From positions 1 to 64,000 of the IMG/VR virus record IMGVR_UViG_3300045988_125731: 64,000 nt of DNA, one strand, 5' to 3'. This DNA comes from a virus. Position numbers and translations under genes: made by a program. The notes under the pieces are model-generated. The model was not told the DNA's origin. It made no database searches and saw only the letters and a program-made list of their open reading frames with translations. Shown in pieces: positions 2,661 to 43,240 of the stretch (position 1 is its first letter; every line of letters starts with the position of its first letter).

Positions 2661-2680
2661 TTTAAAAACCTTTCTTTTAA

Positions 2681-3035: not shown

Positions 3036-3044
3036 GCAAATATG

Positions 3045-3232: not shown

Positions 3233-3320
3233 AAAGTGTATATAATTTGATATTATAACTATTATTAGGGGGTATAATTTGAAATTAAAACCATTTTTTC
3301 CGCTCCAAAAACATAGTCAG

Positions 3321-3787: not shown

Positions 3788-4061
3788 TAAGAAACAAAGC
3801 AAAAGATAAAAGTTAAGATTTTTAGAAATTTATTTTTGAACTTTTTCTTTTACAGAAAAGATTTAGAAAAGTTCCTTAAACATCTTATAAAAACAAACTT
3901 ATCTAGTAAATTCCAAGATATTTACAAGAGTGATTAATTTATAGAAGAACATCAAGATATAATTTTCTTTTTGTATTCTTTTTTCTTTTAAAAGTAATAT
4001 ATAAATAGAATATAATAATAAAGAAAAGAACAAATACTGATTGGAAAGATAAAGTTCTTCC

Positions 4062-4150
4062 CCTAGTAGCCGAATGGCTACGTTCAGGGGGAAGAAGAGA
4101 GCCTCTCTGGCTCTGGAAGAGAGCCCTAGCGGCTTGAGCGGGTATACAAC
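4062..4150. other. GC-rich cluster of mutually exclusive hairpins; possible origin hairpins or a small structured RNA
   Basis: Hairpin GTAGCC-gaat-GGCTAC (4066-4081). Direct repeat GAAGAGAGCC at 4094-4103 and 4116-4125 with GGCTCT (4109-4114) complementary to both. The local GC rise is obvious against the surroundings. Confidence 0.45.
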
Positions 4151-4566
4151 CAAAAAAGAAAGTATACAATTAGCAAAGAGAAAAGGGACAGCTAACCATT
4201 TCTTTTGTATAAGCTAAAAAATTCTACACGTGACTAAGTTTAGCCGATACAAAGAAAAAGTAGGCTTCCACTTTACCTCTAAAATATAAATATATAGGTA
4301 AGAAATTAAGTAAGATTTAGACAAGAAGAGAAGGAAATAAAGGGCTTATGTAAGGGGCTTATGCTAGTTATTTTGGCTCTAATTTATAACATAATTATAT
4401 ATATAACATTTTGTTGTTTTTTAGAGCCATTTTTTATCAGCTAAGACTCTTTTTTAGCGGTGAGTTAGCAGGAGCGGTTGACAAAAATCTTGCACGCTTT
4501 TTAAATAATTATAAAAATAAAAGAGCATTTATAGAACAATATTTATTTGTTTATACTATAATTCTT

Positions 4567-4595
4567 TTGTAAAAACAAATATGATACAATATATT
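4567..4595 (+). promoter_or_regulatory. candidate rightward promoter TTGTAA-17-TATATT for the helicase operon
   Basis: -35 at 4567-4572, -10 at 4590-4595, 56 nt upstream of the ATG at 4652 (RBS AAGGAG at 4639-4644). Confidence 0.45.
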
Positions 4596-4651
4596 ATTAT
4601 TTGTCTAATCTTAATAATTACAATAAAAATAGATAGAAAGGAGTTGATAAG

Positions 4652-18782: not shown

Positions 18783-20759
18783 GTGGACGAAAATCAATTA
18801 TTAGAACCTACACCAACACAAAGTGTATTTCTTAATTTAGATAAGATTAAACTTCTAGAAGAAGATGATGACATTATGTTGGTTGACCTTTGGTTACTTC
18901 ACGAAGGTCGCAATCGCAACAAATGTGATTTGAAAAAAGAAGTTATTGAAGAAGCTATTCCTTCTTTCTATAATAAGTTTATCGTATATAAATTCGATAA
19001 TTCTTATTATCCAACAGATGTGGCAGAACATAACAAAAGCCTTAATGACACATCAATGAATATCGCTGGAATTATTCTTAAAGATACAGGATATAAATGG
19101 GTTAAGAAAAATGGCAAAAATTATTTAGTAATGTGCGGAGCAATAAGCAAAGTATATCAACCTATTCTTGCTAATATCATCAAGAAACGTGGTGGCAATA
19201 TGAAAATTTCTATTGAAATATTACTTCCAGAAGATGATGTTAAGAATAAAGATGAAGATGGATATATCGTACCTTCTTTTATTAGACTAAGAGGGGTTGC
19301 TTTACTAGGACAAAATATCCAAGAGGGTATTGAAGGTTCACATTTAGATGTAACTAAATTTGCTCTAGTAACTAATTCATTCTTAGACAATGACAACGTA
19401 CAAATTATTGAAAAGAAATATAATCCATTATTGAAAGGTACAGTTATGTCCCATATTGAAGATAATTCTAAGAAATTTATAAAAGATGAGAGCTCTGAAG
19501 GAAAGGAGGAAGGAACAATGCAAACAGTTAACAATTCTCTAAGTGCAAGAACTATTGAAGAAAAGATTTGGGTATTTTTAAAAGATTATAAATATAGTGA
19601 TGGCGATTGGGAAGGTCGTAAATATTATATCGAAGATATTTATCCAGATGAACATTTTGCAATTATTCGTGATAATGAAACTGGTAAAATATATAAACTT
19701 CCTTATGAACTAGACGCTGATGGTGAAGAAGTTAGTATTGAACGTGATAAGATGTCTGCTTTAAAAGAAGTAGTTAAAAAAGAACATTACGTTGAAAAAG
19801 ACCACGAAGACCACGTTATTCATAATGTTTATAATTTATTATGTAATGCTGAAGATTTTGGAACTGGCAGTGAAATTAAGATTGATGAATCTGAAGAAGC
19901 TGTTAGTGATACTCCTTGGGGAGAAGTAGACAAAACTGATTTAAGAAATAAGGTTTTAGAAGCTTCAAACTATAAAGAGCTTGTACATAAGGTATATGCC
20001 TTAGTAGAAGAAGGTTGGGAGGAAGCTCCTAGCGAAAAATTAAAATATCCTATTATGGAAATCAAAGGCGGAAAAGCAGTTTACAATAAAGGTGGACTTG
20101 CTAGTGCTTTAGGTTATGCTAAGAAAGAAAATGAAGAGGAAGTAATCTCTAAAGTTGAGAAAATTCGTGAAGAATTAGACCTTGACGAAGATTCAGACGA
20201 TAAGAAAGCTGTTAAAGAAAACAGTTTAGAACCAGGTGACTTAGGTACTCCTGACGAATTTGCAACACGTATGGCTGAACTTCAAGAAGCTTTAGCAAAA
20301 TCAGAAGAAGAATGTGCTTCACTACGTGCTTCTCTAGATGATAAGTGTAAAGAATTTGAAGAAGTAAAAGCAAAATGTGATGTATTCGAAAGAGAAAAAG
20401 AAGTTATCTCTATGAGAGAGTTCCTTGACAAGTATTCACGATGCTTTGATGAAGAAACTATAGAAGAACTTAACAAAAAGACAGAAGAAATGTCTTATTG
20501 TGATTTTGAAAAATTAGTTAAAGATAAAGTATGTGAATATGTTGCAAAATCACAAGATGGTAAAAAACAAGGAAAGGTACAAGAAGATGAAGATGACCTA
20601 ACTGCTGGTCAAGAAGACAAGGCTAAAAAGGCTATTCAAGGCGGTTATGGTTTTGAACCACTACCATTCTCTTACACTTTACCTCAATCTAACAATGGTA
20701 ATGATACTATAACTAAAGAATCATTATACGAGCGTTATGCTCACATATTTGACAAATAA
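18783..20759 (+). CDS. putative prohead protease / scaffolding-like protein (658 aa)
   Basis: Sits between the portal and capsid genes. The C-terminal 200 aa is acidic with coiled-coil character, which is scaffold-like. Confidence 0.4.
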   Translation: MDENQLLEPTPTQSVFLNLDKIKLLEEDDDIMLVDLWLLHEGRNRNKCDLKKEVIEEAIPSFYNKFIVYKFDNSYYPTDVAEHNKSLNDTSMNIAGIILKDTGYKWVKKNGKNYLVMCGAISKVYQPILANIIKKRGGNMKISIEILLPEDDVKNKDEDGYIVPSFIRLRGVALLGQNIQEGIEGSHLDVTKFALVTNSFLDNDNVQIIEKKYNPLLKGTVMSHIEDNSKKFIKDESSEGKEEGTMQTVNNSLSARTIEEKIWVFLKDYKYSDGDWEGRKYYIEDIYPDEHFAIIRDNETGKIYKLPYELDADGEEVSIERDKMSALKEVVKKEHYVEKDHEDHVIHNVYNLLCNAEDFGTGSEIKIDESEEAVSDTPWGEVDKTDLRNKVLEASNYKELVHKVYALVEEGWEEAPSEKLKYPIMEIKGGKAVYNKGGLASALGYAKKENEEEVISKVEKIREELDLDEDSDDKKAVKENSLEPGDLGTPDEFATRMAELQEALAKSEEECASLRASLDDKCKEFEEVKAKCDVFEREKEVISMREFLDKYSRCFDEETIEELNKKTEEMSYCDFEKLVKDKVCEYVAKSQDGKKQGKVQEDEDDLTAGQEDKAKKAIQGGYGFEPLPFSYTLPQSNNGNDTITKESLYERYAHIFDK

Positions 20760-21381: not shown

Positions 21382-22518
21382 ATGAAAAACACTAATATTA
21401 ATGTTTTAACATTTTCTGGCGAAGAATATGCAGCACCTCTAGCACTTGCTAATGGATTAAAAGACATTATCAAAGCTGCTGCTTATACTCGTTATGGATA
21501 TACTAATATGGTTCAAAAATTCTCTCTTGACAATTACAATGAAGAGATGAATAAAAATAAAAAAGCAATTCTTGGCTATTGTAAAGAAGTATCTCACGTT
21601 ATTGCTGATTTCTCAACAAAAACTGGACTAGCTGCTGCTTTCGATAACTCAAATTTCACAACAATGTTCAACTCTATTATAGCAACAGCATTAAGAGGCG
21701 TTATGGTTGAAGCCGTATCTCCACAATTAAATGCTTTATGTAATATCGTAACAGTTGACCTTGGTGATTCTTACACTTGGGAAATCGATACTAAAGGTTT
21801 ACCAATTGCTCAAAGAGCTTCTTATAATGACAACGTAGCAATTTTAAGAGGACACGCTGCTGGTAGTATCACTGTTAAACCAAGACCTTATAGCCTTGGT
21901 ACAACTATTGACTACATCAGAATTTTAGCTAATGACTATGACCTAGGTGCTGAACTTGCACGTGTACAATTAGGTATGTTATATGCTCAATATAAACTAG
22001 TTGTTAACACAATCTTTAATAGTGCTAATATCGTTGATACTGCTCTAGTAAGTGCTGCTTGGAATGCTACTACATTCGTTCAATTAGCAAGCGATATTAA
22101 GATGTTAAATGGTGGTGCTGGTGTTACTGCTTATGGTACACTTACTGCATTTAATAAGATTAGTGCTTTAGCTACAACTGGCGGATATGGTTTCGTATCA
22201 CAAGATGAAATCATCAGAAATGGATACCTTGGCAAGATTTATGGTGTAGATTGTGTTGTTATTGACCAAGCTACTGACTTCTCTGCTCCATTTACAACTG
22301 CTAACGCTGCTAACTTACGTTTAGTTCCAGATAACTATATCGTTTTATTAAGCACAGTTGGTGATAAACCAGTTAAACTTGTTCGTGAAAACTATGTACG
22401 TGTTAGAATGATTGAAGCTATCGACAACTCTCTAAACCGTATTGAATACAACTACTTTATGAACTTCGACGCTGGTTACGCTACTCAATGCCATTACGGC
22501 TTACAAGCTACTAACTAA
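21382..22518 (+). CDS. major capsid protein (putative)
   Basis: 378 aa, with the codon bias of a highly expressed gene. Followed by a strong intrinsic terminator. Confidence 0.55.
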   Translation: MKNTNINVLTFSGEEYAAPLALANGLKDIIKAAAYTRYGYTNMVQKFSLDNYNEEMNKNKKAILGYCKEVSHVIADFSTKTGLAAAFDNSNFTTMFNSIIATALRGVMVEAVSPQLNALCNIVTVDLGDSYTWEIDTKGLPIAQRASYNDNVAILRGHAAGSITVKPRPYSLGTTIDYIRILANDYDLGAELARVQLGMLYAQYKLVVNTIFNSANIVDTALVSAAWNATTFVQLASDIKMLNGGAGVTAYGTLTAFNKISALATTGGYGFVSQDEIIRNGYLGKIYGVDCVVIDQATDFSAPFTTANAANLRLVPDNYIVLLSTVGDKPVKLVRENYVRVRMIEAIDNSLNRIEYNYFMNFDAGYATQCHYGLQATN

Positions 22519-26927: not shown

Positions 26928-26982
26928 TAAAATACTATATATAATAATGCATTATATTACATATTTAAGAAAGGAAAACAAA

Positions 26983-28038
26983 ATGAAGAAATTTTTAATT
27001 GGTGTTGCCGATGTCAGACTTTATGCCGATGAACAATGCACTTCTTTAGTAGCAAGTTCAAAGACAATGTTAAACAACACAGTTGATATTACAAACTCTG
27101 CTGTTGACATTCAAGGTGGTAAGGGTAACAAATTACAAAAACGTTTCTTTACATCAGCTATGATGAACTTAACTCTTACTGACTGTCGTTTTGACTTAGG
27201 TATGATTGCTGCTAACGTAGGTAGTGAAATTGCTTCAAGTTTTACAGTTCGTAAAGAAATGAACGTTACATTAAATAATTACGTTGGCACATTAACTGGT
27301 GTAACTCCAGTAGGTGTTAACGGTGGTGCTGCTGTTGGTTACGTTGAATACGATGGAGAAATCTTCGGTGAAGGTATCGCTCTTGCTACTGCTGGTGATA
27401 ATTATACTATCACAGTTCCTCAAAGTTGGGGTATTCCAGCAAATGCTTCTGTTTGTGTATCATTTAACGCAATCGATGATTCAGCACGTTATATTACAGT
27501 TCCTGCAAACATTATTCCAAAGGTTGTTTATGCTGTATTAGAAGCAGACCTTGCAAGTGATGAAGCAGGCGAAGGTGTTATTGGTCGTGCTACAGTTGTA
27601 GTTCCACGTTTACAATTAAGTGGTACTCAAAGTCTTGCTTTAACAAGTGATGGATATGCACAACAAGAACTTACTGGTTCTGCATTAGCATTCACTCCAA
27701 GTGGAACTGCTCAACCTTGTGGAAGCAAAGAAATTTATGGATATATCGTTGAAGAATTAAAGAACGCTGCTTGGTATAGTGATGTTAAGGCTCTTATAGT
27801 TTCTGACTTAAAAGGTGCTTCTGGCGACGCTATTCCAGTTGTTGTTTATGCATTTAATGGTCAATATTCATTCCTTTTAACTAATAAACAATTAGATGAT
27901 TTGACTATTACTGGTAGTGATGGTGTTACTTACACTAAAGCTGCTCATACAGTAAGTGCAACTAAAGCAGGAACAATTACTGCTAAAGTTACATCTAAGC
28001 CTGAATTAGTTGGCGTTGGAAATATTACAATAGGATAA
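26983..28038 (+). CDS. major tail protein (putative)
   Basis: ATG after an AGGAAAACA RBS. Ala/Gly/Thr/Val-rich, 351 aa. Followed by an intrinsic terminator, as expected for an abundant tail tube protein. Confidence 0.5.
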   Translation: MKKFLIGVADVRLYADEQCTSLVASSKTMLNNTVDITNSAVDIQGGKGNKLQKRFFTSAMMNLTLTDCRFDLGMIAANVGSEIASSFTVRKEMNVTLNNYVGTLTGVTPVGVNGGAAVGYVEYDGEIFGEGIALATAGDNYTITVPQSWGIPANASVCVSFNAIDDSARYITVPANIIPKVVYAVLEADLASDEAGEGVIGRATVVVPRLQLSGTQSLALTSDGYAQQELTGSALAFTPSGTAQPCGSKEIYGYIVEELKNAAWYSDVKALIVSDLKGASGDAIPVVVYAFNGQYSFLLTNKQLDDLTITGSDGVTYTKAAHTVSATKAGTITAKVTSKPELVGVGNITIG

Positions 28039-28591: not shown

Positions 28592-29251
28592 ATGGCTAAT
28601 AATTTAAGTTTAGGTATGGTCATAGCCCTAATTAAAAAATTAGGTGGAGGCGGTGGAGATATTGATAAGGCTATCGCTGATTATATTGCTGCTCATACCA
28701 ATATTGCTGATGGAATTGCTGGGTTAGACGCTGCTGGGCAAGTGGCTCCTGCACAATTACCAGACCGAAACCATCAATTAGTTTTACCTTATGTTGTAGA
28801 ATTAACTAGCGAAGAAATGGCAAACGCAATAGATGACAAAACTGAAGATTATGGCACTATTGCTATTGGTCAAGTCGCAACCCCTACTACTAATGATGTA
28901 TTTGTAGTAGGGCATTTATATCAATATGTATCTGAAGAAGGCGTATATAATTGGAATGATTTAAGTGATAGTTTTCAAGCAAAGAACTTATCATTTACTA
29001 ATACATCAGTTGCCGCTTCTTTATTTGCTGATGATACAACTTATGCTGATTTAGGTTTTAGTTTTAAAGCCACAATTCCTCTTACAGGAGTTACGCAAGC
29101 AATGTATCCTATTGCTTCTTTTAGTTTAGTTGACGCTATGAGTGGAAATTATGCTCCAACAGTAGAGTCTTATAATGGCGGTATATACATTTGGGCAAAA
29201 ACTAAGCCAGACACAGCCTTAGTTATACCTAGAATAGAGGTGATTAGATAA
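28592..29251 (+). CDS. tail-module protein sharing a C-terminal domain with 30232-31443
   Basis: The C-terminus DAMSGNYAPTVESYNGGIYIWAKTKP is homologous to DAASGNFAPFVN...GFVIYAKEKP. Confidence 0.45.
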   Translation: MANNLSLGMVIALIKKLGGGGGDIDKAIADYIAAHTNIADGIAGLDAAGQVAPAQLPDRNHQLVLPYVVELTSEEMANAIDDKTEDYGTIAIGQVATPTTNDVFVVGHLYQYVSEEGVYNWNDLSDSFQAKNLSFTNTSVAASLFADDTTYADLGFSFKATIPLTGVTQAMYPIASFSLVDAMSGNYAPTVESYNGGIYIWAKTKPDTALVIPRIEVIR

Positions 29252-30006
29252 TGGCAGTCGGAATTACTAATTGTTTAGTAGGAAGTAGTGAAAATACATT
29301 AAAGAATTTATTAGATGCTACACAAAGTTGTTATTATTTATTTCGTAACTATAAAGGAACTTCTATTGATGATTTGATTACTTATAATGACACAAGTAAT
29401 GTTACTAATATGTCTAATATGTTTAATAAGTGTTCTAGTTTAACTACAATACCACAATTAGACACTAGTAAAGTTACTGATATGTCTTCTATGTTTTATG
29501 ATTGTAACTCATTAACTTCTATACCTTTATTAGACACTAGTAAAGTTACTAATATGTCTTATATGTTTGGATATTGTAGTAAGTTATCAAGTATCCCTTT
29601 ATTAAATACTAGTAATGTTACTAATATATCTTCTATGTTTTATGCTTGTAAGTCATTAACTTCTATACCTTTATTAGACACTAGTAAAGTTACTTTTATA
29701 TCTGGTATATTTAGTGGTTGTAGTCAGTTAACTACCGTTCCTGCATTAGATGTTAGTCATAGCAATAATCTGAATAGTATATTTAGTGGTTGTACTTCTC
29801 TTAAATCTATTTTAATGACGGGAATGAAAGTATCGTTTGACATTTCTGCTTCTACCCAATTTGAAACAGATGACATAGTAACTATTTTAAATAATCTTGC
29901 TACTATTACAACTCCACAAACACTAACAATGGGTGCTACAAATCTTGCTAAGTTATCAGACGAACAAAAGAAAATAGCAACCGATAAAGGCTGGACTCTA
30001 GCCTAA
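29251..30006 (+). CDS. BspA-type leucine-rich-repeat (LRR_5-like) protein
   Basis: Six tandem repeats of about 22 aa: TSKVTNMSxMFxxCxSLTSIPLLD. Confidence 0.6.
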   Translation: MAVGITNCLVGSSENTLKNLLDATQSCYYLFRNYKGTSIDDLITYNDTSNVTNMSNMFNKCSSLTTIPQLDTSKVTDMSSMFYDCNSLTSIPLLDTSKVTNMSYMFGYCSKLSSIPLLNTSNVTNISSMFYACKSLTSIPLLDTSKVTFISGIFSGCSQLTTVPALDVSHSNNLNSIFSGCTSLKSILMTGMKVSFDISASTQFETDDIVTILNNLATITTPQTLTMGATNLAKLSDEQKKIATDKGWTLA

Positions 30007-32017: not shown

Positions 32018-32701
32018 ATGAAAAAATTAAAATCAGAGAGTTTTGCTCAAGATATTAAATTTGAAGATATTATTAGTCTTGAAGAACTTAATGAAGATTT
32101 ATTTACCGAATTTAAATACAAAGGAAAAACTATTATAGTAAAAACATTTTTAATGCCAGAAGAAGTTAACGAGTTAGTTAACTATTGTATTTCTAATTTC
32201 TTTGAAGATTTCGACCCAGAGAATTTAGAAGTTAATAAACTTCCAGCAATAAAATCTATTTTTGATTTATTAGTTTTGCGATATTCAGCTAATGTAGAAA
32301 TTGATTTTGATGACCCTGAAGCTAAATATCTTCGCCTTTTATCTTCACGCTTTTTACAAGATATTTTAAAACTTGTAGAAAATAGAGAAGAAATCTGGCA
32401 TTTAATAGAAGAAACTATTAATCATCAAATTACTATACATAGTTTAAATCTTGTAGCTTCACACATTCCAACATCAGCCGAACTAGATTCTAGTATGGAG
32501 CAAATGGGAGCAACTCTTGAAGCATTAAAGAAAAGTAATCCAGAACTAATAGAACTTTTAATTAATAAGACAGTTGCAGAAACTACCAAACAAGCAGCAA
32601 GAGAAGAACGTAAAACTCAAAAGCCAAAACCTTCTGTTGAAGAAACTACACGCTTAGAGAAAATACGTAAAGATGTAGATTCTGCTGTTGAAGGTAGATA
32701 A
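32018..32701 (+). CDS. acidic protein; candidate tail assembly chaperone
   Basis: Acidic, 227 aa, upstream of the tape-measure genes. No frameshift partner identified. Confidence 0.35.
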   Translation: MKKLKSESFAQDIKFEDIISLEELNEDLFTEFKYKGKTIIVKTFLMPEEVNELVNYCISNFFEDFDPENLEVNKLPAIKSIFDLLVLRYSANVEIDFDDPEAKYLRLLSSRFLQDILKLVENREEIWHLIEETINHQITIHSLNLVASHIPTSAELDSSMEQMGATLEALKKSNPELIELLINKTVAETTKQAAREERKTQKPKPSVEETTRLEKIRKDVDSAVEGR

Positions 32702-32871: not shown

Positions 32872-33477
32872 ATGGTGGTGTTTAAAAACCATTCAGAATT
32901 TGACCGAATTTTCGGCTCGATGTTTTTATATACTGTGATGTCTAGCGTTTTGGATTCTGTTATAAAAGAGTTTAAAAAGAACTTCAAAAGTAGAAATATT
33001 AATGTAGATGTTTTTAAACAGTATATAAAAAGAGAAATTATAGTTCATAACAATAAAAAAGTTGAAGGTTTTATTTATATAGATACAACTCTTTTACAAC
33101 TACAAGAAGAAGCAGACGCAAGTCCTGCAACTGGTGGTTGGTCAAGATTTAAGTTTACGTATGACGCTAGTGAAAATTATGGAGATTTTCCTACGGCTGG
33201 TGATAATACAATTAATGGAAAGTATGTATCTTGGCATATGATTAAATGGCTAGAACACGGAATGACTATCGACCCAAATTCGCATTATCGTGGTAATATG
33301 GCGAAAAGAATCCGTGGCAAATTAATACCTAAACCTTGGAAAAAAGTAGGAATGTTTGAGAAAACCTATGAATGGGCAAAGGCAAATTATGCTACACTAT
33401 TAAACAAAGCATTCAAAAAAGTTGGTTGTATTCCAGTTGGTCAACCTGGTGGACAACCAAGATTACATAATAAATAA
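32872..33477 (+). CDS. hypothetical protein (201 aa) between the terminator and the tape-measure genes
   Basis: Has its own RBS AAAGGA. No motif recognised. Confidence 0.4.
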   Translation: MVVFKNHSEFDRIFGSMFLYTVMSSVLDSVIKEFKKNFKSRNINVDVFKQYIKREIIVHNNKKVEGFIYIDTTLLQLQEEADASPATGGWSRFKFTYDASENYGDFPTAGDNTINGKYVSWHMIKWLEHGMTIDPNSHYRGNMAKRIRGKLIPKPWKKVGMFEKTYEWAKANYATLLNKAFKKVGCIPVGQPGGQPRLHNK

Positions 33478-33512
33478 ATTAATTATTGAAGAAAGGAGGT
33501 ATATGAGGAAAT

Positions 33513-36500
33513 ATGGCTAATAAAATAACTGGCACTAATTATTATATATCCAGTGGAATACAGATTACTACAACTGCTCAAGATATTCAAGAACAACTTA
33601 ATAAACTTAGTGCAGATAAAGTTTTGGCAACTGGAATTCGACTTAAGTTTAGTACTACTGGGTTACGAAGTGGTTTTAATACAGCAATTAGGAATGTATT
33701 AAAAAATTCTAATTTAGGTTATATGGCAGGACTTGCTCCAGGTAGTGGCAGTGGTGGAAGTGGTATTGCTAGTAAAGTAGCAACTCCTATAAGTCCTATT
33801 GATGGACTTAATAAAGATGATGTTTCTAAGATGGGAATTCTTGAACAATTTTCTACTACTAGTAGATTTTCTTTAAAGAAACCACCTTCAGTTACTGAAA
33901 TGTATAAATATCAGCAAAATTTAAATACCACTATTAGAGCCACTTTTAAAGAGGGACAGGGGTTAATTTCTTTAACTAAAACTCTTACTACTAGAGCAAG
34001 TGATACTACTAGAAGATATGAAGAGTTAAAGATTAGACTAAATAATTTACGTAAAATTGGCAAACTTTCTAAAGTTCAGTTTAGACGTTTTACTGATGAA
34101 TTAGAGGCTACCAATCAACTTACAGGCAAAGATAAACTAGAAGCATTAAGAAAAATTCAAACAGAACTTGCCGATATTAGCAAACGCAGTCAGTCTTGGC
34201 TTGGTATATTTAAGCAGAATCTACAAAAGTTTACATCTTGGATAACTATTACTGTTGGTTTCTTTGGTATTATTAATTCTATTAAGAAACTAGTAAAAGA
34301 AGTGAAAGCCGTTGATGATGCAATGGTCGAACTTAATAAAGTTGCCGACCTTTCACAAACGCAAATCGCTAAAGTTCAAAAAGACGCAAATGCTTTGGCT
34401 TCTAGGGTATCCACAACTGCTGACGAAGCGTTAAGAGCGGTAGCACAATTTAAAAAGGCTGGTTATAGTTTAGACCAATCGTTTATCTTAGCAGAAACTG
34501 CTTTACGTACTGTTAATGTAGCAGATGGAATAGAAAATGCAGAAGATGCCGCAACTTCTCTTATTGCAATCTTAAGAGGTTTCAATATGGAGGCTACTGA
34601 AGTTGGTCGAGTTCTAGACGTATTAAATCATATATCTAATAATTTCGCCGTCGATGTTAATAATTTAACTGACGGTATGCAAAGAATATCAGCCGTTATG
34701 GCACAGACTGGAACTTCTTACGAAGAAACTATTGGTCTTTTAACTGGTGGCTTTGAAATTTTAAGAAATTCTGAAGTAGTCAGTCAAGGTCTAAATACAA
34801 TTTCACAAAGAATGCGTAGAGTAACTGAAGATGGACAAGACAATAGTCAAGTAATATCTAAGATAGAAGAAGGTTTGTATAAATATACTAGGGGAGCAGT
34901 TTCAGTTTACGACAAGCAAACTGGAGAGCTTCGTTCTACTTATGATGTATTAGCTGACCTTGCTACTGTGTGGGATACTTTATCATCTTTATCACAATCT
35001 TATATTACTGAATTGTTAGCTGGTAATAGACAAAATAAAGTTTTAGCAGCTATTATGAGCAACTGGGCAAATGTTCAAAAAGTTGTTGCAGAAAGTGCTT
35101 ATGCTTATGGCTCAGCTAAGGAAGAAGAACAAAAAGTTTTACAAAGTGTTCAAGGTAAGTTAAATGCGTTAAAACAAGCTATTCAAGAATTTGCTCTAAG
35201 AAGTTTAACTTCAGACACAGAAAAAGGAATACTAGATATATTAACTAGTATTGTTAAATTTGGGACTGATTTAGGGGGCTTATTCAAGATTTTAGGGCGT
35301 TTGGGCATAATTATACTAGCTTGGAAACTACCTCAAATTATACTCCTTATTAGCTCTTTAAGAACAAATGTTATTAGACTAACTACTGAGATTAACGGTC
35401 TTACTTATCAATACCAAGTAATGACGGTTATGGGCAAAGAATATGTTATTGCCGAACGTAGTTATGGAGAGGTTACTAATGCAGCAACCAATACAGTTAA
35501 TGGGTTAACCGCTTCCTTAAAACATATATCTATAGTTATAACAGCTTTAATTGCAGTTTATACAGCTATTCAATTTATAGATTCTCGTATTACAGAGTCT
35601 ATGAAAAAAGAAGCAGAAGAAGCTGAAAAATTCTATGATAAGAATAAATCTCAATACGATACTCTAATGAGTAATTATGATGAATATATTAAACTTATCA
35701 CAAAAACTGACGCTACTGCTTCTGAAGTAAATAAATTAAATGTATTAGAAAAGCAATTTGCTCTTTATGGAATAGATAATGAAATAGCTCAATTAGGAAC
35801 TAGAACCGATAAGATTGAAGCAATTGCTGACATTATAAGACAACAAGCTTTAGCAAGACAAAAAGTAGTAGAAGATACTGCTAATGCTATGGCTGTTAAC
35901 AAACTTCCAAGTTATTGGTATAATGCTACACAAAGTTCTGCGGGTAAAGGTAGAATACACGCATTTCAGGAAGCTTCTTTTGAAGAAAAAATAAAAATGC
36001 TTAGGAGTATGGCTTCTAATGAGAATATTAGTGCATCGCATAGGGACGAATGGCAAGCCGCTTTAGAATATTACGAACAACTTTACAATGAATGGAAACA
36101 ATTAGGCTTAGCCGCTGACCTTGAAGGTAATCCTAAGATTATAGAATTACGTACTAAAATAGGAGAGTTTTTAAATGCTGCTGATTTTTCTTTAGATAAA
36201 ACAAAAGAAACCCAACTTACTATGTATAAATCTATTGACGCCTTAGTTGCTGATATAGAAAAAGAACTTAGTGATGGTTCTTTAAGTGGAGAGGCTCAGC
36301 TTTATATAGAGTCTTTACTAAAGGCTTACCAAGAGCAACTTGATATTGTTTTAAATAAAGACTATGCTTTTGAATACTTAGGAGATAAATTGCAAGAACT
36401 TAAAGATATTCAAAGCAATAGAGAAAAAGAATTAGAGCGACAAGAAAAATTAAAAGCTATTGAAGAAGCTAGACAAAAACTAGCTGAAGCCGAAAGAACT

Positions 36501-37073
36501 CATATGCTAGTACGCACTAAAGAAGGTTGGCGTTATATAGTTGAAAAGAGTACCTTAGAAGAAGCTCAGGCAGAATTAGATAGTGCTTTAAAAAATGCAG
36601 GGCTAGATGATTTATCTCAGGCTATTGCTGGAATAGAGGCATTACGTAGTATCTATTCTCTTGCTAGTGGTTCTGTATTAGATAATATGAGAACGTATTT
36701 TAGAGAGGCAGGAAATTTATCTAATTGGCTCGCTTCTGATTGGGAAAGTAAATTAAAAACTTTAGATAGTTTTGGCGACCCAGAATTATCAAAGAAATAT
36801 TATGATTCACAAAAAAATTCTACAGCAACAGGAATAGACCTAAGTAAATTCTTTGGTTTAGGTAGAACTGGTGGCTATGTAGGAGATAGTCCTAATAAGA
36901 ATTTAACTTCTATAGATACAAATAAATCACAAGCAATTCTTTCTGCTATAAGAGAGAAAGCAAAAAATATTATTTTAAATATTGATGAATTAGATTTGCC
37001 AGGCGTAACTAATGCTTCACAATTAGTTGCTGCTTTGACAAGTTATGCTTATCAAAAAGCGTCTAATAAATAG
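33513..37073 (+). CDS. tail tape measure protein, copy 1 (1186 aa)
   Basis: TP901-type tape-measure core (VDDAMVELNKVADLS...AVAQFKKAGY...NVADG...LLGGFEILRNSEV). Hydrophobic segment, long coiled coils, a Gly-rich stretch. Confidence 0.8.
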   Translation: MANKITGTNYYISSGIQITTTAQDIQEQLNKLSADKVLATGIRLKFSTTGLRSGFNTAIRNVLKNSNLGYMAGLAPGSGSGGSGIASKVATPISPIDGLNKDDVSKMGILEQFSTTSRFSLKKPPSVTEMYKYQQNLNTTIRATFKEGQGLISLTKTLTTRASDTTRRYEELKIRLNNLRKIGKLSKVQFRRFTDELEATNQLTGKDKLEALRKIQTELADISKRSQSWLGIFKQNLQKFTSWITITVGFFGIINSIKKLVKEVKAVDDAMVELNKVADLSQTQIAKVQKDANALASRVSTTADEALRAVAQFKKAGYSLDQSFILAETALRTVNVADGIENAEDAATSLIAILRGFNMEATEVGRVLDVLNHISNNFAVDVNNLTDGMQRISAVMAQTGTSYEETIGLLTGGFEILRNSEVVSQGLNTISQRMRRVTEDGQDNSQVISKIEEGLYKYTRGAVSVYDKQTGELRSTYDVLADLATVWDTLSSLSQSYITELLAGNRQNKVLAAIMSNWANVQKVVAESAYAYGSAKEEEQKVLQSVQGKLNALKQAIQEFALRSLTSDTEKGILDILTSIVKFGTDLGGLFKILGRLGIIILAWKLPQIILLISSLRTNVIRLTTEINGLTYQYQVMTVMGKEYVIAERSYGEVTNAATNTVNGLTASLKHISIVITALIAVYTAIQFIDSRITESMKKEAEEAEKFYDKNKSQYDTLMSNYDEYIKLITKTDATASEVNKLNVLEKQFALYGIDNEIAQLGTRTDKIEAIADIIRQQALARQKVVEDTANAMAVNKLPSYWYNATQSSAGKGRIHAFQEASFEEKIKMLRSMASNENISASHRDEWQAALEYYEQLYNEWKQLGLAADLEGNPKIIELRTKIGEFLNAADFSLDKTKETQLTMYKSIDALVADIEKELSDGSLSGEAQLYIESLLKAYQEQLDIVLNKDYAFEYLGDKLQELKDIQSNREKELERQEKLKAIEEARQKLAEAERTHMLVRTKEGWRYIVEKSTLEEAQAELDSALKNAGLDDLSQAIAGIEALRSIYSLASGSVLDNMRTYFREAGNLSNWLASDWESKLKTLDSFGDPELSKKYYDSQKNSTATGIDLSKFFGLGRTGGYVGDSPNKNLTSIDTNKSQAILSAIREKAKNIILNIDELDLPGVTNASQLVAALTSYAYQKASNK

Positions 37074-37087
37074 GAAAGGAGGTAGTT

Positions 37088-40000
37088 ATGGCACAATATA
37101 ATTATTATGTTGGCGTTGGCGTTAAGATAGTAACAAGTCCTAAAGAGTTACGAGATTTGTTATCGAAATATAATGTAGCGGTTAATAATGTAAAAGTAAA
37201 TTTTGATGTTGATTATATGGCTGCACAATTCAAAGCAGCGATAAAGAAAGCCCTAGGTAGTATTAGTGTAACTAATCTTGGAATAGATAATTCTACTAAG
37301 CCATTTAATATAAAAGATATTGAACCTAGTGCAAAACTAGAAAGTTCAGTAAAAGCATATAATGAACTTGGTAAAGTTATTAAAGTAGTTAATACTTATG
37401 CTATTGGAACAAACAAAACATTAAAAGTTGTAACTGACGGCACGGGTAAATTAATATCTACTCAACAAACTTTAAAAACGCATAATACAGAAGCCAATAT
37501 TGCGTTAAAAAATGTGCAAGAAAGATTTACATATTTTAAACAAAATGGTAAATTAACAGCACAACAAATTAACTACTTCACTCAAGAATTAAATAGAATC
37601 AGCAAATTAACAGGAAAAGAAAAGGTTGAAGCGATTAAGGTATTCAATCGACAACTTTCTGACACAGGCAAAAGAGCGTTAAGTATTGGCGAACAGTTTA
37701 AAGAAGCGTTCAAGAAATTTATGGTCTGGTCTGCTGCTACAGTAACATTTGCAAGTTTAGTAAAAGCTATTAGGAGTATGATTCAAGAAATTAAAAAGCT
37801 TGATGATGCTATAGTTGAATTAAACAAAGTTGCTGACTTAACTAACAAAGAATTAAGTGGCGTTATAGATAAAGCTAATGAACTAGCTGATAAAGTTTAT
37901 AGCACCGCAGACCAAGCTTTGCTCGCCGTTGCTCAATTTAAAAAAGCAGGTTATGAATTAAATCAATCTTTTGACTTAGCTGAAGTTGCTATAAGAATGA
38001 CAAATGTTGCTGATGGTATTACAAATACTGAAGAAGCCGCTTCTTCTCTTATAGCAATATTAAAAGGCTTTGGACTAGAAGCGTCATCTGCTAATAGAGT
38101 TCTAGACCTTTTGAACCACACTTCAAATAACTTTGCGGTAGATACTGACGACTTAACCAACGGTATGACTAGAATTTCTGCTGTTATGGCTCAATCAGGC
38201 ACTTCAATTGAAGAGACTATAGCGTTATTAACAGCGGTAACCGAAGTTATGCGTAATGCCGAAGTTGCGAGCCAAGGCTTGAATGCTATTTCACAAAGAA
38301 TTAGAAAAGTTACAGAAGACGGCGAAGATAACACCAAGGTTATTGCTAAGATTCAGTCTGTATTTGATAAGTATGTTAAAGGTGTATCTGTATATGATGT
38401 TAATGGAGAATTACGTTCTACATATGACATTTTAGCAGACTTACAACCACGTTGGGCTGGATTAAGTTCAGAAGTAAAAGCATATGTTACAGAAGCAATT
38501 GCTGGTAATAGACAAAATAAAATTTTAGTTGCTTTAATGCAAAACTGGGAAACTGTTGATAAAGTAATAACAGAAAGTGCAAACGCTGCTGGTTCCGCAA
38601 TTGAAGAAGAAGGTAAATTTGCTGACAGTGTACAAGGTAAATTAAATCAACTAAAGCAAGCGTGGAACGAACTTGCTCAAGCAACTTTAGATTCTAATCT
38701 TTTAAAATTCTTTATTGACGCAGGTAAGAGTGTTGTAAAATTAGCTACTTATCTTGGTGGACTACACAACGTTTTGTTTGCTATCTCGGGTTTAGTTGCA
38801 GGAATAAAACTTCCAGTAATAGTTAATTATGTTATGGCTTTAACTAAAGGCTTTAGAGCTAATCACGTAGCTTCTGTAAGTAAAACAATTTCTACTAAAG
38901 CTGAAACGCAAGCCGTTAATGAAAACACTCAAGCAATGCAATTGAATAATGCTGCTATGAATACAAATATTGCTTCTACCAATAAGCTTAGCAAAGCATT
39001 AAAAATAGCTTCTCTTGCAATCACAGGCATTACAATAGTATGGAGTGCTGTTACAACTATTATTAATAAAATCAAGGCTGATATGGAAGAAGCGATTACC
39101 CTTGCTTCTGAAAATGCCACAAAACAAAAAGAGCGTTTTGATGAATTTTTGAAAGAGCGTGATGTATATCTTGAATACTCACAAACTATTAATAAAACCG
39201 CTAAAGAAATTACTGCATTAAATGCAGCCGAAAAGAACTTAGCAGAAACTTATGGCTTTGTATCTTCTCAAATGGACTTAGCAAATGATAGTCTAGATGC
39301 AAGAAAAGAAAAGTTAAAGGCTTTATTTAATGTTCAAAGAACAGAAGTTCAAAAGACTATTGACGCTTATCAAAAGCAGATTAATACTTTAGGCAAAAAT
39401 ACATCTGCTATTAGAAAAAGCGAACTATGGACTGGTACTCGAGCTATGTCTTTAGAAGAATATTTAAGTAAGCGAGAACGCACACTACTAAAGAATGTTC
39501 GTGCTAAGGGTGAACCTAAGTTTACTGTTGAAGAAATTAGACAATTTAGAGAAGGTTGGACTAATACTTATAATCAGTTATTAAAAGAACTTCAAGGTAA
39601 TGAAGCATATCAAGAAATTACTTCATTACAAAATCAAATTACAGCACTTCAAAAAGTTTACCAAGATGAGGAAGTATTTAATCTTAGTAATTTAATAGCA
39701 CAATTTCAAGCACTTCCTACTTTTGCCTTAGAGCAAGGTACAGATATAGGAGATTTAGCAGATACACAAGTTAATTCTATTGCTACAATAGACGCTGTAA
39801 TTGCCAAAGTTAAAGAACTTTTAAATTTGGAAAACCAAACTCCTGAAGTTATACAGATGTTTAATAGTATTATTGAAAGATATACTACATTAAAAGAAAC
39901 TATTGAGAAAACTGATTTTGCTTATAACACACTAGATGAAAAGTTAAGTATTTTAAAGAAGATTCAAAGCGAACGAGAAGAAGAACTAAAGACAGAAGAA

Positions 40001-40681
40001 AAACTAAAAGCCGTAGAAGAAGCCAGACTTGCTTTAGCTAAGGCTCAAAATAAATATGTCTTAACTTATACTTCACAAGGTTGGCGATATGTAAAAGATG
40101 AATCTGCTATGCAATCAGCAACTGAACAACTTACCAAGGCTATTCAAGACGCTGGGTTAGATGATTTATCTCAAGCAATAAACGGCGTAGAGCAACTTCA
40201 AGAAATTTTGTCTACTATGACAGGAGATGAAAAGGACGCTATGCTTGCTTATTATAGAGAAGCAGGTAAATTAGCCGATTGGCTTGAAATGGACTATGCT
40301 AGTAAACTTGCTGTTATAGATTCTATTGCAAGAAGTGCTGGATATGAAGGCTCTTATACTCAAGACTATTTTAACGAATGGGGAAAAACTGGAACTAGAT
40401 TTGGCAATCTAACTCCTTATATTCCAAGTTCGCATACTGGTGGTGTAATTGGCGGAGTTCGCACCAATCCAAACGAACAAATTACTAAACTTCTTAAAGG
40501 AGAACTTGTATTAACTGAAGGACAACAAAAAGCCCTTGTAAATCAAATGGATAAACAAGGTGGTGGACTATCTATTAATATAGGTAATATTTCTACTAAG
40601 GAGCAAGATGTTGATGTTACTAATTTTATAGAACAAATTAAACAAATTGGTAGTATGCAACGAAGAACAAAGAGAATATAA
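37088..40681 (+). CDS. tail tape measure protein, copy 2 (1197 aa); paralogue of copy 1
   Basis: The same tape-measure core (LDDAIVELNKVADLT...AVAQFKKAGYEL...). N- and C-terminal regions are alignable to copy 1 (GWRYI/GWRYV...AGLDDLSQAI). Confidence 0.8.
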   Translation: MAQYNYYVGVGVKIVTSPKELRDLLSKYNVAVNNVKVNFDVDYMAAQFKAAIKKALGSISVTNLGIDNSTKPFNIKDIEPSAKLESSVKAYNELGKVIKVVNTYAIGTNKTLKVVTDGTGKLISTQQTLKTHNTEANIALKNVQERFTYFKQNGKLTAQQINYFTQELNRISKLTGKEKVEAIKVFNRQLSDTGKRALSIGEQFKEAFKKFMVWSAATVTFASLVKAIRSMIQEIKKLDDAIVELNKVADLTNKELSGVIDKANELADKVYSTADQALLAVAQFKKAGYELNQSFDLAEVAIRMTNVADGITNTEEAASSLIAILKGFGLEASSANRVLDLLNHTSNNFAVDTDDLTNGMTRISAVMAQSGTSIEETIALLTAVTEVMRNAEVASQGLNAISQRIRKVTEDGEDNTKVIAKIQSVFDKYVKGVSVYDVNGELRSTYDILADLQPRWAGLSSEVKAYVTEAIAGNRQNKILVALMQNWETVDKVITESANAAGSAIEEEGKFADSVQGKLNQLKQAWNELAQATLDSNLLKFFIDAGKSVVKLATYLGGLHNVLFAISGLVAGIKLPVIVNYVMALTKGFRANHVASVSKTISTKAETQAVNENTQAMQLNNAAMNTNIASTNKLSKALKIASLAITGITIVWSAVTTIINKIKADMEEAITLASENATKQKERFDEFLKERDVYLEYSQTINKTAKEITALNAAEKNLAETYGFVSSQMDLANDSLDARKEKLKALFNVQRTEVQKTIDAYQKQINTLGKNTSAIRKSELWTGTRAMSLEEYLSKRERTLLKNVRAKGEPKFTVEEIRQFREGWTNTYNQLLKELQGNEAYQEITSLQNQITALQKVYQDEEVFNLSNLIAQFQALPTFALEQGTDIGDLADTQVNSIATIDAVIAKVKELLNLENQTPEVIQMFNSIIERYTTLKETIEKTDFAYNTLDEKLSILKKIQSEREEELKTEEKLKAVEEARLALAKAQNKYVLTYTSQGWRYVKDESAMQSATEQLTKAIQDAGLDDLSQAINGVEQLQEILSTMTGDEKDAMLAYYREAGKLADWLEMDYASKLAVIDSIARSAGYEGSYTQDYFNEWGKTGTRFGNLTPYIPSSHTGGVIGGVRTNPNEQITKLLKGELVLTEGQQKALVNQMDKQGGGLSINIGNISTKEQDVDVTNFIEQIKQIGSMQRRTKRI

Positions 40682-40703: not shown

Positions 40704-41468
40704 ATGTCTTTAAATGCTCAAACAGGTAAAGAGATTAGAGTTGCATTAGAGCAAGCATTAGATAATGTGCTTAGTGAAGCATATAAAACTTTGCCTTATG
40801 ACAAAATCTATTATGGAATATTAATAGGCGTTGATAGTCTGGGTATAAATTATACTCTTTCTATCAATGATAAAATTTATACTGATGTAAAGCGAATACA
40901 AAACTGTGGAGTTCTATCTATTGGAACTCCCGTTATTTGTATGGCTCCACAAAATCAAATGACAAAACTTTTTATTCTTGGGGCTGTACAAACTACTACA
41001 CAAACGGCTGGACAAATTACTCCTATTTTAATTAGTATTACAGATAGTGATATTAATAATGTAAATGGAGTATCAGTTCCTAGCGTTAGTGATTTAATTA
41101 ATGAAAGTTTATTATTTACCAATCATATTAAATTACAACTTCAATCAGGAGAGTATTTAAACCTTCCTTTTACAAGGAAAACCTCTAATAATGTATATTA
41201 TAGTGCGGTTGTAGATGGACAACTTTGGACTTTATATACAAAGGGTGCTGAAAATAAAGTTTATATTACAAAATCTTCAATGGGTATTGACACGTACGAC
41301 GCAACAGCTTCTGAGGCTGATATTGCATTAGATAAAACTGCTTATGCCCAAGGAGAAAAGATAACTGGTAATATTAATACTTATGATGGAAGTTATATTT
41401 TGGAAAAAAGAATAAATAATAAATTACGAAAGTTTACGAAAATTAAACGTAAAACTAGGAAAATTTAG
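40704..41468 (+). CDS. distal-tail/baseplate protein candidate (254 aa)
   Basis: Sits immediately after the tape-measure genes. Its C-terminus (AYAQGEKITGNINTY) resembles the shared motif of the next two genes. Confidence 0.4.
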   Translation: MSLNAQTGKEIRVALEQALDNVLSEAYKTLPYDKIYYGILIGVDSLGINYTLSINDKIYTDVKRIQNCGVLSIGTPVICMAPQNQMTKLFILGAVQTTTQTAGQITPILISITDSDINNVNGVSVPSVSDLINESLLFTNHIKLQLQSGEYLNLPFTRKTSNNVYYSAVVDGQLWTLYTKGAENKVYITKSSMGIDTYDATASEADIALDKTAYAQGEKITGNINTYDGSYILEKRINNKLRKFTKIKRKTRKI

Positions 41469-41486: not shown

Positions 41487-42455
41487 ATGGCAACTTGTAT
41501 AGTTAAAAGCTATGATGGCAATAAAATAATTGGTCAATTTGATAATGCTACAGGTATAGTTATTTCAAATAATGCTAATGGTGGTATTACTCAAGGCTCT
41601 ACCTTAGTTTGTTCTTTACCATTCTTGCTAGGTTTATCCACCTCTGCCAATGGAGCATTAAAGTATACGCCTAAAACAACCGCTCAAACGGTTACCGAAA
41701 CTACTTTATATGCTTCAAGAGACCCTATTAAAATTAGTTTAGGAACTGGAACATATAGTTTAAGTACGCAAGACACTATTGTAAGAAATAATATTCAAGT
41801 TACAGTGGCTTCGGATGTTAAAAACCAATCAAAGACTGTAACTCCTACAACTTCTCAACAAACTATTACTCCAGATAGTGGATATAGTGGTTTGAACCCT
41901 GTAATTGTTAACGCTATTCCTGCAAAATATAAAGACACTTCTGACGCTACAATTGTAGATGGTTCTCAATTATTAACTGGATATACTGCGTATGGTCACA
42001 ATGGCAAAGTTATTGGTTCTATGCCTAAAGCAACCTCTGGAGTATTAGTTAATAATGCCGCTGGTGTAATTATTCCTAAAGGATATTACGATGGCACTTT
42101 AAAAGCTACTGTTAATTTACAATCTAAAACAATATCTCCAAAAGCAACTTCTCAAACTGTAACTCCAGACAGTGGACAATTCTTATCAAGCGTTACAGTT
42201 GACCCAATTCCTATTTCAAATTTAACTTATAGCAGTCAAGCTTCTTTAAACAAAGCCTTAGTTTTAGACTTTAGTAAGCAAGCGGCTGTTCACGACAATT
42301 ATCAATCATTCTTCACAGCCGATGGATATTATGCTGACTCTATTGATGTTATGAGACCAGATACTCTTATCCCAGACAATATTCCAGCCGATGTTACAAT
42401 TGCTGGTATTGCTGGTGGAATCCCAATTTACACAGGAGCGTATACTAAGAACTAA
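41487..42455 (+). CDS. tail/baseplate protein (322 aa) with a conserved C-terminal TLIPxNI...VTIAG motif
   Basis: C-terminus PDTLIPDNIPADVTIAGIAGG. Confidence 0.45.
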   Translation: MATCIVKSYDGNKIIGQFDNATGIVISNNANGGITQGSTLVCSLPFLLGLSTSANGALKYTPKTTAQTVTETTLYASRDPIKISLGTGTYSLSTQDTIVRNNIQVTVASDVKNQSKTVTPTTSQQTITPDSGYSGLNPVIVNAIPAKYKDTSDATIVDGSQLLTGYTAYGHNGKVIGSMPKATSGVLVNNAAGVIIPKGYYDGTLKATVNLQSKTISPKATSQTVTPDSGQFLSSVTVDPIPISNLTYSSQASLNKALVLDFSKQAAVHDNYQSFFTADGYYADSIDVMRPDTLIPDNIPADVTIAGIAGGIPIYTGAYTKN

Positions 42456-43240
42456 TGGCAAAGAGTAAAGTAATAACTGTCAGTGAATTTTCAAATAGTA
42501 CAGCGGCAAATAGTGCAAAGAGAATATCAGATATAAATAATATACAAATTTCCATCACTGAAAATGGTAGTTATACTTTACAAACTAAAGGCACAATCTG
42601 TCGTAAAGATGTTGATTTAATAGTTAATGTAGCTTCTGCTGGAATTACAGGAGTTAATCAAATTAATAATACACTCTTTATTGATAGTAGTTGTACCGCT
42701 ACAAAAGCAACAAACCATTTAAATGGTAATGCAAGTGATGTGTATATTAATAGGTTGGATTATTGTGATGCTCTTTCTCATAAAACTTTCAATGATAAAG
42801 GGCTTGTCTATAACTTTATAGACGATTACGGGGGTGGAGCAGATGGAAGCAACGGAATAATTAAATTTTGTAACGGGTCTGAGGCTGATAACAACCTATA
42901 TCAAGAAGGCTGTGGGGCGAGTCTACAGTTTACAGCAGGCGATAACTCTATACCTACTGTTGATATTTATGATAGAGATGGAAATCTTGTTGCATATATG
43001 CACGATGGCTTACTCGAGAATGTGAAGGAAATAACCATCGATGATTTACATCTAGCCAGTGGTAATCAAATAATACAAGGGTTGGAATTTCAATATCAAT
43101 CACAGGCAACTGGGACTAGTGGAGAGTGTCTTACCTATTATAGTAAAATTACAATAATTAAACCTAGCACGCTAATTCCAAGTAATATTAGAAAAGGTGT
43201 TACTATTGCAGGTGTAACTGGAACATATGAAGGAAATTAA
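42455..43240 (+). CDS. tail/baseplate protein (261 aa), C-terminal paralogue of 41487-42455
   Basis: C-terminus PSTLIPSNIRKGVTIAGVTGTYEGN. Confidence 0.45.
   Translation: MAKSKVITVSEFSNSTAANSAKRISDINNIQISITENGSYTLQTKGTICRKDVDLIVNVASAGITGVNQINNTLFIDSSCTATKATNHLNGNASDVYINRLDYCDALSHKTFNDKGLVYNFIDDYGGGADGSNGIIKFCNGSEADNNLYQEGCGASLQFTAGDNSIPTVDIYDRDGNLVAYMHDGLLENVKEITIDDLHLASGNQIIQGLEFQYQSQATGTSGECLTYYSKITIIKPSTLIPSNIRKGVTIAGVTGTYEGN

Follow-up and report, generated by a model that had tools for sequence, protein, structure and literature searches.

A tandem pair of full-length tape-measure genes conserved in an uncultured phage lineage: a candidate two-chain tail ruler

Introduction

The tape-measure protein is the textbook one-gene molecular ruler and, to our knowledge, every tape measure that has been resolved is a homo-oligomer. 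How, then, is a tail measured when two complete tape-measure genes lie one behind the other in the same tail module? This question is raised by an uncultured virus recorded in IMG/VR as IMGVR_UViG_3300045988_125731, of which positions 1 to 64,000, a stretch of 64,000 nucleotides (nt) referred to here as the window, were analysed. Two neighbouring open reading frames (ORFs) on its plus strand, T1 at 33513-37073 with 1186 amino acids (aa) and T2 at 37088-40681 with 1197 aa, had been described in a first-pass annotation, made from the letters alone, as complete and diverged copies of a TP901-type tape-measure gene, and it was asked there whether both are incorporated, whether the phage switches between alternative tail lengths, or whether one copy has been repurposed.

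Two complete tape-measure genes in tandem

T1 and T2 are colinear over 1185 residues in BLASTP (36% identity, 55% positives, E=0), and both lie above the curated cut-offs of the two family profiles, with scores of 89.6 and 112.5 bits against PF10145 (cut-off 33.2 bits) and of 103.5 and 136.6 bits against TIGR01760 (cut-off 28.8 bits). The best PHROG match of the two proteins is the tail-length tape-measure family phrog_4211 (E = 3e-65 and 1e-73), and on these profile matches their membership of the TP901-type tape-measure family is regarded as secure. The initial description of two complete, diverged genes that can be aligned along their whole length therefore holds. The identity of 40-55% given with it is too high for the whole length: identity between the paralogs is 63% in the TP901 core and 47% in the C-terminal module, and only 20-30% elsewhere, namely in the N-terminal 240 residues, the hydrophobic region, the variable helical spacer and the last ~110 residues. 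The genes and their parts are as follows, relatives of the window being cited by their L numbers.

33513-37073, + strand: T1, tape-measure paralog 1, 1186 aa, the more derived copy; orthologs in L005, L006, L007 and L011 at 48-49% identity; ratio of nonsynonymous to synonymous substitution (dN/dS) 0.08-0.12
37088-40681, + strand: T2, tape-measure paralog 2, 1197 aa, closer to the single-copy relatives; orthologs at 53-55% identity; dN/dS 0.05-0.09
34266-35198, + strand: TP901-type core of T1, aa 252-562 (TIGR01760 match), with 142 invariant columns and 63% identity between the paralogs
37751-38800, + strand: TP901-type core of T2, aa 222-571 (TIGR01760 match)
34230-34283, + strand: hydrophobic segment 1 of T1, aa 240-257, placed by sequence motif
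35265-35579, + strand: hydrophobic segments 2 and 3 of T1, aa 585-615 and 671-689, Kyte-Doolittle means 1.89-1.96
37718-37771, + strand: hydrophobic segment 1 of T2, aa 211-228, placed by sequence motif
38741-39073, + strand: hydrophobic segments 2 and 3 of T2, aa 552-579 and 634-662, Kyte-Doolittle means 1.81-1.97
36333-36737, + strand: C-terminal module of T1, aa 941-1075, with EKLKAIEEAR, GWRYI and AGLDDLSQAI
39887-40291, + strand: C-terminal module of T2, aa 934-1068, with EKLKAVEEAR, GWRYV and AGLDDLSQAI

The motifs quoted at the outset (NYYI/NYYV, GWRYI and AGLDDLSQAI) are present in both copies, NYYI/NYYV at residue 9 of T1 and residue 5 of T2, GWRYI and GWRYV in one copy each, and AGLDDLSQAI in common. 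Hydrophobic segments, likewise reported for both, were recovered by a Kyte-Doolittle scan (19-residue window, threshold 1.4), which gives two clear segments in each window copy; a third, segment 1, is weaker, staying below 1.4 in the T1 and T2 of the window and exceeding it only in the T1 orthologs of L005 and L006 (1.45-1.56). AlphaFold2 models of the T1 and T2 monomers, of which the secondary structure alone is usable given a pLDDT of 47.5 and 52.4, are mostly helical from about residue 160 to about residue 1100 and carry a beta-hairpin at GWRY, with the elements in the same order in both.

A sequence search of the PDB with T1 and T2 returned zero tape-measure homologs, and a domain profile search detected no lysin domain of the YomI type in either protein. 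A tape measure built of internal tandem repeat units, of the type described by Belcaid et al. 2011, was considered and rejected: neither gene contains periodic intragenic repeats, no repeat families were found within the proteins, and Tandem Repeats Finder gave two marginal 21-nt, 1.9-copy matches only.

One old duplication, retained throughout a clade

Protein and locus searches recovered a small metagenomic clade in which all contigs spanning the slot carry the pair, the two-gene layout being present in at least 10 independently assembled contigs. The clade is sampled through metagenomic contigs that represent three diverged lineages (three to four, depending on how they are counted), and no lineage in it lacks T1 or T2. 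The comparison of single-copy with two-copy relatives that had been proposed as a check thus gives a simple division, with the pair in all slot-spanning clade contigs and one gene in the nearest relatives. The lengths of the two proteins within the clade are as follows.

Window lineage: T1 1186 aa, T2 1197 aa, sum 2383
L006: T1 1193 aa, T2 1188 aa, sum 2381
L005: T1 1190 aa, T2 1180 aa, sum 2370
L007, L012 and L015-L017: T1 1185 aa, T2 1185 aa, sum 2370
L011: T1 1188 aa, T2 1185 aa, sum 2373

T1 therefore ranges over 1185-1193 aa and T2 over 1180-1197 aa, and within any clade phage the two differ by 0-11 residues, which is less than 2 nm and below one tube ring. The idea that the phage switches between alternative tail lengths finds no footing in these values. 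T1 in particular has stayed within 1185-1193 aa although its sequence has diverged by about 50% and accumulated about 40 residues of insertions and deletions (indels). Between L005 (6408-13543) and L007 (3971-11106), T1 has gained 5 aa near residue 828 and T2 shows a net change of -5 aa at 789-813; both changes fall in the homologous variable spacer, the sum stays at 2370 aa, and they form a single pair of events.

Within the clade, T1 orthologs share 48-68% and T2 orthologs 53-69% identity, as compared with 34-39% in every comparison of T1 with T2. Neighbour-joining analysis gave 100% bootstrap support to each of the T1, T2 and T1+T2 clades and placed the single-copy proteins outside, and the T1 and T2 subtrees mirror each other with congruent internal topologies. 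These mirrored, fully supported clades point to one old duplication, followed by co-divergence of the copies without gene conversion; as would be looked for in subfunctionalised tandem paralogs, the single duplication is older than the divergence of the lineages. At the DNA level, T1 and T2 are 52% identical over aligned codons, with a best stretch of 71% over 217 nt and a longest exact run of 21 nt, and third positions at identical residues match in 54% of cases, which is near saturation for an AT-rich genome. Recombination or gene conversion between T1 and T2 was rejected on this nucleotide identity, on the shortness of the longest exact run and on the congruent subtrees, and the earlier suggestion that DNA-level similarity could drive recombinational variation in length falls with it. 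In two independent lineages dN/dS is 0.05-0.13 for both copies, values which indicate that T1 and T2 are both under strong purifying selection.

The order of the tail module (tube gene, few small genes, two chaperone-slot genes, tape-measure gene or genes, distal-tail genes) is shared by the single-copy relatives L008, L009, L020 and L022 and the two-copy relatives L005 and L006, and the duplication was therefore tandem and in situ. Judged by gene order and trees, the locus is shown to have arisen long ago, by duplication of a TP901/SPbeta-type tape-measure gene in tandem and in situ, and it is carried by an uncultured lineage of roughly 92 kb whose members are predicted to be siphoviruses.

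Parts retained and parts altered relative to single-copy relatives

The nearest single-copy relatives carry in the same slot one protein of 1207-1212 aa (P0121/P0122 in L022-L024) or of 1102 aa (P0013 in L008). Each paralog therefore has the ancestral ruler length, and the sum is twice that length. The N-terminal strand-helix-strand pattern of the single-copy relatives is retained in both T1 and T2, as is the C-terminal module of P0121 (EKL.AIE.AR, GW.Y, AGLDD.SQAI). This module comprises 135 columns, of which 48 never vary and 22 separate the paralogs by a different fixed residue, and in the C-tail beyond it a further 13 columns are paralog-specific. The differences in the C-tail are clearest in two short elements, which stand in the P0121/P0122 C-tail as KLLKGEYVLTEGQQ followed by NIEIGNISLPNV and appear to have been divided between the copies:

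36969-37037, + strand: T1 end motif IILNIDELDLPGVTNASQLVAAL, aa 1153-1175, in which the ancestral L-P-x-V is kept; aligned with P0121/P0122 (IGNISLPNV), CB473P1 and P0015
40487-40519, + strand: T2-only motif KLLKGELVLTE, aa 1134-1144, ancestral; present in all T2 orthologs and in the outgroup (KLLKGEYVLTE)

All T1 orthologs have a gap of 8-10 aa where KGE.VLTE stands in T2 and the outgroup, and T2 keeps KLLKGE[LV]VLTE together with IGNIS, the LPNV being replaced by TKE plus an insertion. Identity to the single-copy outgroup in the C-tail is 45-52% for T2 and 24-26% for T1, and T2 is therefore the more ancestral-like copy; over the whole length, T2 and T1 share 34% and 30% identity, respectively, with the single-copy relatives. 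The extreme C-termini of T1 and T2 thus appear to have changed in a complementary way, as read from short motifs of which the KGE motif is missing from the single-copy P0013 and L020 proteins as well. The pattern would fit subfunctionalisation better than redundancy, on motif evidence that is thin.

Translation signals and the spacer between the genes

Each gene is preceded by a ribosome-binding site of its own:

33493-33512, + strand: T1 initiation region, with AAGGAGG at 33493-33499 and GAGGA at 33505-33509
37074-37087, + strand: spacer of 14 nt with the T2 ribosome-binding site, AAGGAGG at 37076-37082, 5 nt ahead of the ATG

The GGAGG upstream of T1 is conserved in relatives, and a GGAG-type site before T2 is kept in all lineages, in spacers of 14-20 nt. 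A promoter and terminator scan found no terminator-like site between T1 and T2; overall, terminator-like sites number 13 against a shuffled mean of 6.6 (~2x), and promoter-like sites are at chance level. This layout indicates that T1 and T2 belong to one operon and that each is separately translated from its own Shine-Dalgarno site. Fusion of the two products by read-through or frameshifting was rejected, as the relative frame of the genes varies among lineages and L006 has a second in-frame stop.

A tiny out-of-frame ORF at 33503-33520 (ATG AGG AAA TAT GGC TAA), which follows directly on a strong AGGAGG and overlaps the start codon of T1, might modulate the translation of T1 relative to T2. 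L013 has this ORF too; in L005 and L006 it is not conserved.

A two-chain ruler and its rivals

The arrangement favoured here is that T1 and T2 are built side by side and in register into the lumen of the same tail, where they would form one hetero-oligomeric ruler with non-equivalent anchoring at the tip; its probability is put at about 0.45. The oligomer could be a 2:1 heterotrimer or a 3+3 bundle, with the N-termini anchored at the tube end and the C-termini at non-equivalent sites of the tail tip. The role of canonical anchoring chain would fall to T2, with T1 as its specialised partner, and during infection both would be ejected, their hydrophobic segments helping to form a membrane conduit. 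When calibrated on the related phage PMBT24, known from electron micrographs, whose tape measure of 1508 aa goes with a tail of 238 nm and hence with 0.158 nm/aa (PMC11035940), one copy (1190 aa x 0.158 nm/aa) predicts a tail of about 188 nm and two copies in series one of about 376 nm; a side-by-side ruler would leave the tail at about 188 nm. This arrangement is favoured because both ancestral end modules and the ancestral length have been kept, because neither copy has been lost in any lineage, and because both copies are strongly constrained while their tip-proximal ends have diverged in a fixed and apparently complementary way. The shared N-terminal pattern and the invariant columns of the C-terminal module imply the same end contacts for both copies, and the 22 + 13 paralog-specific columns, together with the apparent reciprocal loss of motifs, indicate copies that are non-redundant and subfunctionalised.

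Several observations weigh against a two-chain ruler. The evidence for it consists wholly of sequences, taken from metagenomic contigs of only three to four lineages. Local charge rises and falls together along T1 and T2 (r = 0.33-0.88) rather than in complementary fashion, and the profiles carry no heteromer signature, compensating indels were not significant in a sign-permutation test (P = 0.09-0.49), and lengths are matched no more tightly within phages than between phages, the independent changes being too few. The argument from complementary loss concerns short motifs, and, as noted, two single-copy proteins also lack one of them. A heterotrimer would, moreover, break the three-fold symmetry of the hub, and no precedent for a heterotrimeric tape measure was found in the open-access literature, to which all the literature searches reported here were confined.

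The same facts can be arranged in other ways. T1 and T2 could each be homo-oligomeric and serve as alternative rulers, so that one burst would yield two kinds of virion with equal tail length and a different ejected, membrane-facing protein, which could evade superinfection exclusion by hosts or prophages aimed at tape measures or suit different envelopes. Ltp of phage TP-J34 and gp15 of HK97 do block infection via the tape-measure protein, and the most diverged parts of the pair (the N-terminal 160 aa, the hydrophobic region, the helical spacer and the C-tail) could face host factors; each copy, moreover, keeps every ancestral module, both ends and the ancestral length, and each is under purifying selection. 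Yet in all lineages T1 is without KGE.VLTE and T2 without LPNV, so that neither fully equals a single-copy protein, the C-terminal module that would bind the tip has its 22 positions fixed per paralog, and a redundant copy should have vanished from some lineage, which none has; alternative rulers are on balance unlikely. Less is to be expected of a division of labour in which T2 alone measures the tail and T1 has been repurposed, whether as a scaffold in assembly, as an additional channel or pilot protein that is ejected, or as a decoy. T2 is the copy nearer to the single-copy relatives, both overall and most plainly in the C-tail, the ancestral C-terminal motif kept in T2 has gone from T1, and T1 orthologs are in most regions no better conserved than T2 orthologs. 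A length held at 1185-1193 aa despite about 50% divergence is, however, hard to explain unless length matters to T1, which also keeps the N-terminal module, the core, the hydrophobic segments and the AGLDDLSQAI module and has a dN/dS as low as that of T2, and this reading is accordingly rated as distinctly unlikely.

The two proteins might instead lie end to end in the lumen as a serial double ruler, with tail length following the sum of about 2375 aa and reaching about 376 nm. The sum is conserved as well as either length (2370-2383), the +5 aa in T1 of L005 relative to L007 is offset by -5 aa in T2, the extreme C-termini differ systematically, and tape measures of 1500-2300 aa exist among relatives. 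An N-terminus and a C-terminus placed in mid-tail would nevertheless lose the constraints of end modules, and both copies keep the same ones; each copy has the length of the nearest single-copy protein, so that duplication would have doubled the tail in one step; the +5/-5 change is a single event, and 5 aa are far below one tube ring; and the open-access literature offered no precedent. A serial ruler is thus improbable. Finally, the pair could be an artefact or in decay: a sequencing error or an intron may have broken up one gene, or one of the two may be a pseudogene. In many records two tape-measure ORFs are indeed one gene interrupted by an HNH intron (TR-TP1, CB457P1, E3, ICP1), but here each ORF spans the N-terminal module to the C-terminal end, the spacer of 14-20 nt holds a ribosome-binding site and no endonuclease or intron, the layout recurs in at least 10 assemblies, and dN/dS is low for both copies. 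Neither a pseudogene nor a split gene, the latter already judged unlikely in the first-pass annotation, is present, on the combined strength of dN/dS (0.05-0.13), separate start sites and end-to-end alignment, and this explanation is refuted.

Genome context

The window, in which genes for terminase and portal can be recognised, has a GC content of about 32% and is part of a large phage genome; two clade members in IMG/VR measure 92.4 and 92.8 kb. Scans for tRNA genes and Rfam families found none in the window. Around the pair, the tail module contains the following genes.

26947-28038, + strand: tail tube gene of the YomU/SPbeta type, sharing 29-33% identity with PF27173 YomU_Tube genes in L008 and L009
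32018-32701 and 32872-33477, + strand: the two genes of the slot before the tape measures, whose homologs stand ahead of one tape-measure gene (L009, L020) or of the pair (L005, L006)
40704-41468, + strand: first gene after the tape measures, in the distal-tail slot, whose N-terminal 95 aa match the post-tape-measure gene of L005, L006 and L009

A family search found no sheath family, and a YomU-type tube without a sheath indicates a long, non-contractile tail, i.e. a siphovirus. Genes 32018-32701 and 32872-33477 are putative assembly chaperones by virtue of their position only. They are not similar to each other, and neither the chaperone-slot genes nor other tail genes were co-duplicated with the tape measure. 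No relative was found among 185,579 species-representative bacterial and archaeal genomes, so that neither a prophage state nor a host is indicated by this search. A near-identity DNA search among phages gave no match, and the nearest cultured phages are siphoviruses of about 100 kb of Enterocloster and Thomasclavelia; judged by the hosts of these relatives, the phage probably infects a low-GC gut Firmicute.

The rest of the window holds no other substantial paralog pair. The sole other paralog match within it is a 29-aa C-terminal motif shared by genes 41487-42455 and 42455-43240 (322 and 261 aa), which follow the post-tape-measure gene, stand ahead of the baseplate or fibre genes and are absent from L005 and L006; the same motif closes an 825-aa DUF5048 protein of L006, and it may be an exchangeable anchoring motif. 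A DUF285/LRR gene stands at 29251-30006, between the tube and the chaperone-slot genes, and its L005 homolog (19061-19591, 48% identical) is found downstream of the fibre genes, which indicates that this cargo gene has been relocated within the tail module. In the capsid region, gene 21382-22518 (378 aa) is 49% identical to gp17 of TR-TP1, annotated as 'putative orfan', and 44% identical to an L020 gene, and by these matches it links the head modules of otherwise distant phages. Positions 1-4600 have a GC content of 22-29%, few ORFs and repeated motifs, among them the palindrome TATATCAAATTTGATATA at 175, 596 and 1362, CCTTTCTTTTTAAGTCCGYGGACTG at 479, 1234 and 2656, and an 11-nt unit AAAAAAGAAAC repeated about four times at 3071-3124; this part has the appearance of an origin or of a regulatory or early region.

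Significance of the pair

If the two proteins do share one lumen, their tape measure would be the first to combine the products of more than one gene. The symmetry mismatch of the tape measure with the six-fold tube and the three-fold tip is a standing structural puzzle, and a pair of equal length that has been kept until synonymous sites were saturated and identity had fallen to 36% is a natural experiment, from which it can be learned whether hetero-oligomeric rulers are possible, how length is read with two chains, and where in the protein the parts for measuring, for tip anchoring and for membrane penetration lie. There is also a consequence for annotation, in that "two tape-measure ORFs" are usually read as an intron-split or frameshifted gene, a reading that is wrong here.

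Comparison with known systems

The first-pass annotation called two complete copies unusual, and this is borne out by a collection of 50,697 phage records, in which the T2 core matches 365 records at 368 places and none of the 365 has two full copies. The three records with two places, TR-TP1, TR-TP2 and CB457P1, are split single genes. When the literature was searched for paired, duplicated, paralogous or heterotrimeric tape measures, the matches were chaperone pairs, split genes and unrelated heterotrimers, and none described a tandem pair of full length. A complete tandem tape-measure pair of equal length, genuine and conserved, is apparently undescribed in the open-access literature.

The closest known counterparts are single-copy tape measures of the TP901-1/SPbeta type, such as PMBT24 ORF60 (1508 aa), CB473P1 gp33 (1509 aa), SPbeta YomI and P0121/P0122. 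They have the same PF10145/TIGR01760 core, the same position, which follows a YomU-type tube gene and two chaperone-slot genes and precedes the distal-tail genes, and the same end modules, hydrophobic segments and predicted helical build, and P0121 shares GWKY, AGLDD[IM]SQAI and KLLKGEYVLTE with the pair. They differ in being one gene, whereas here there are two full, diverged copies, each with an altered part of the ancestral C-tail. Genes split by introns or HNH endonucleases, as in Thomasclavelia phage TR-TP1, Enterocloster phage CB457P1, Geobacillus virus E3 and Vibrio phage ICP1, also present at least two adjacent tape-measure ORFs. HNH-endonuclease genes interrupt the one tape-measure gene of TR-TP1, in CB457P1 (OP172753.1) the N- and C-terminal parts lie in two ORFs with an unrelated ORF between them, and in Geobacillus virus E3 and ICP1 the "two tape-measure ORFs" are fragments of one gene. 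The ORFs of split genes are thus complementary N- and C-terminal fragments of one protein, in contrast to the present pair, in which each ORF is complete and the spacer is 14 nt. An HNH gene also lies between the two chaperone-slot genes of L024 (2320-3582); the two-copy clade shows no such insertion.

As to structure, tape measures form a helical bundle that runs through the tube lumen from an N-terminus at the collar to a C-terminus on the tip, and trimeric coiled coils have been described for the full length of diffocin CD1366 and for the resolved C-termini of 80alpha and T5 (PMC11329794). For the Pam3 tape measure, six-fold features have been suggested. The bundles of diffocin, 80alpha and T5 are each made of one gene product, whereas a bundle of two gene products, such as is proposed here from the genes alone, would be hetero-oligomeric. 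Tandem paralogs of tail genes have likewise been retained in other phages, gp99 of phiCbK being duplicated as gp122/gp123 in phage Colossus (PMC3556154) and 0305phi8-36 having a two-gene tail chaperone (PMC2147016). In these cases the paralogs are fibre, tip or chaperone proteins, whereas in the present lineage it is the gene of the length ruler that has been doubled and kept.

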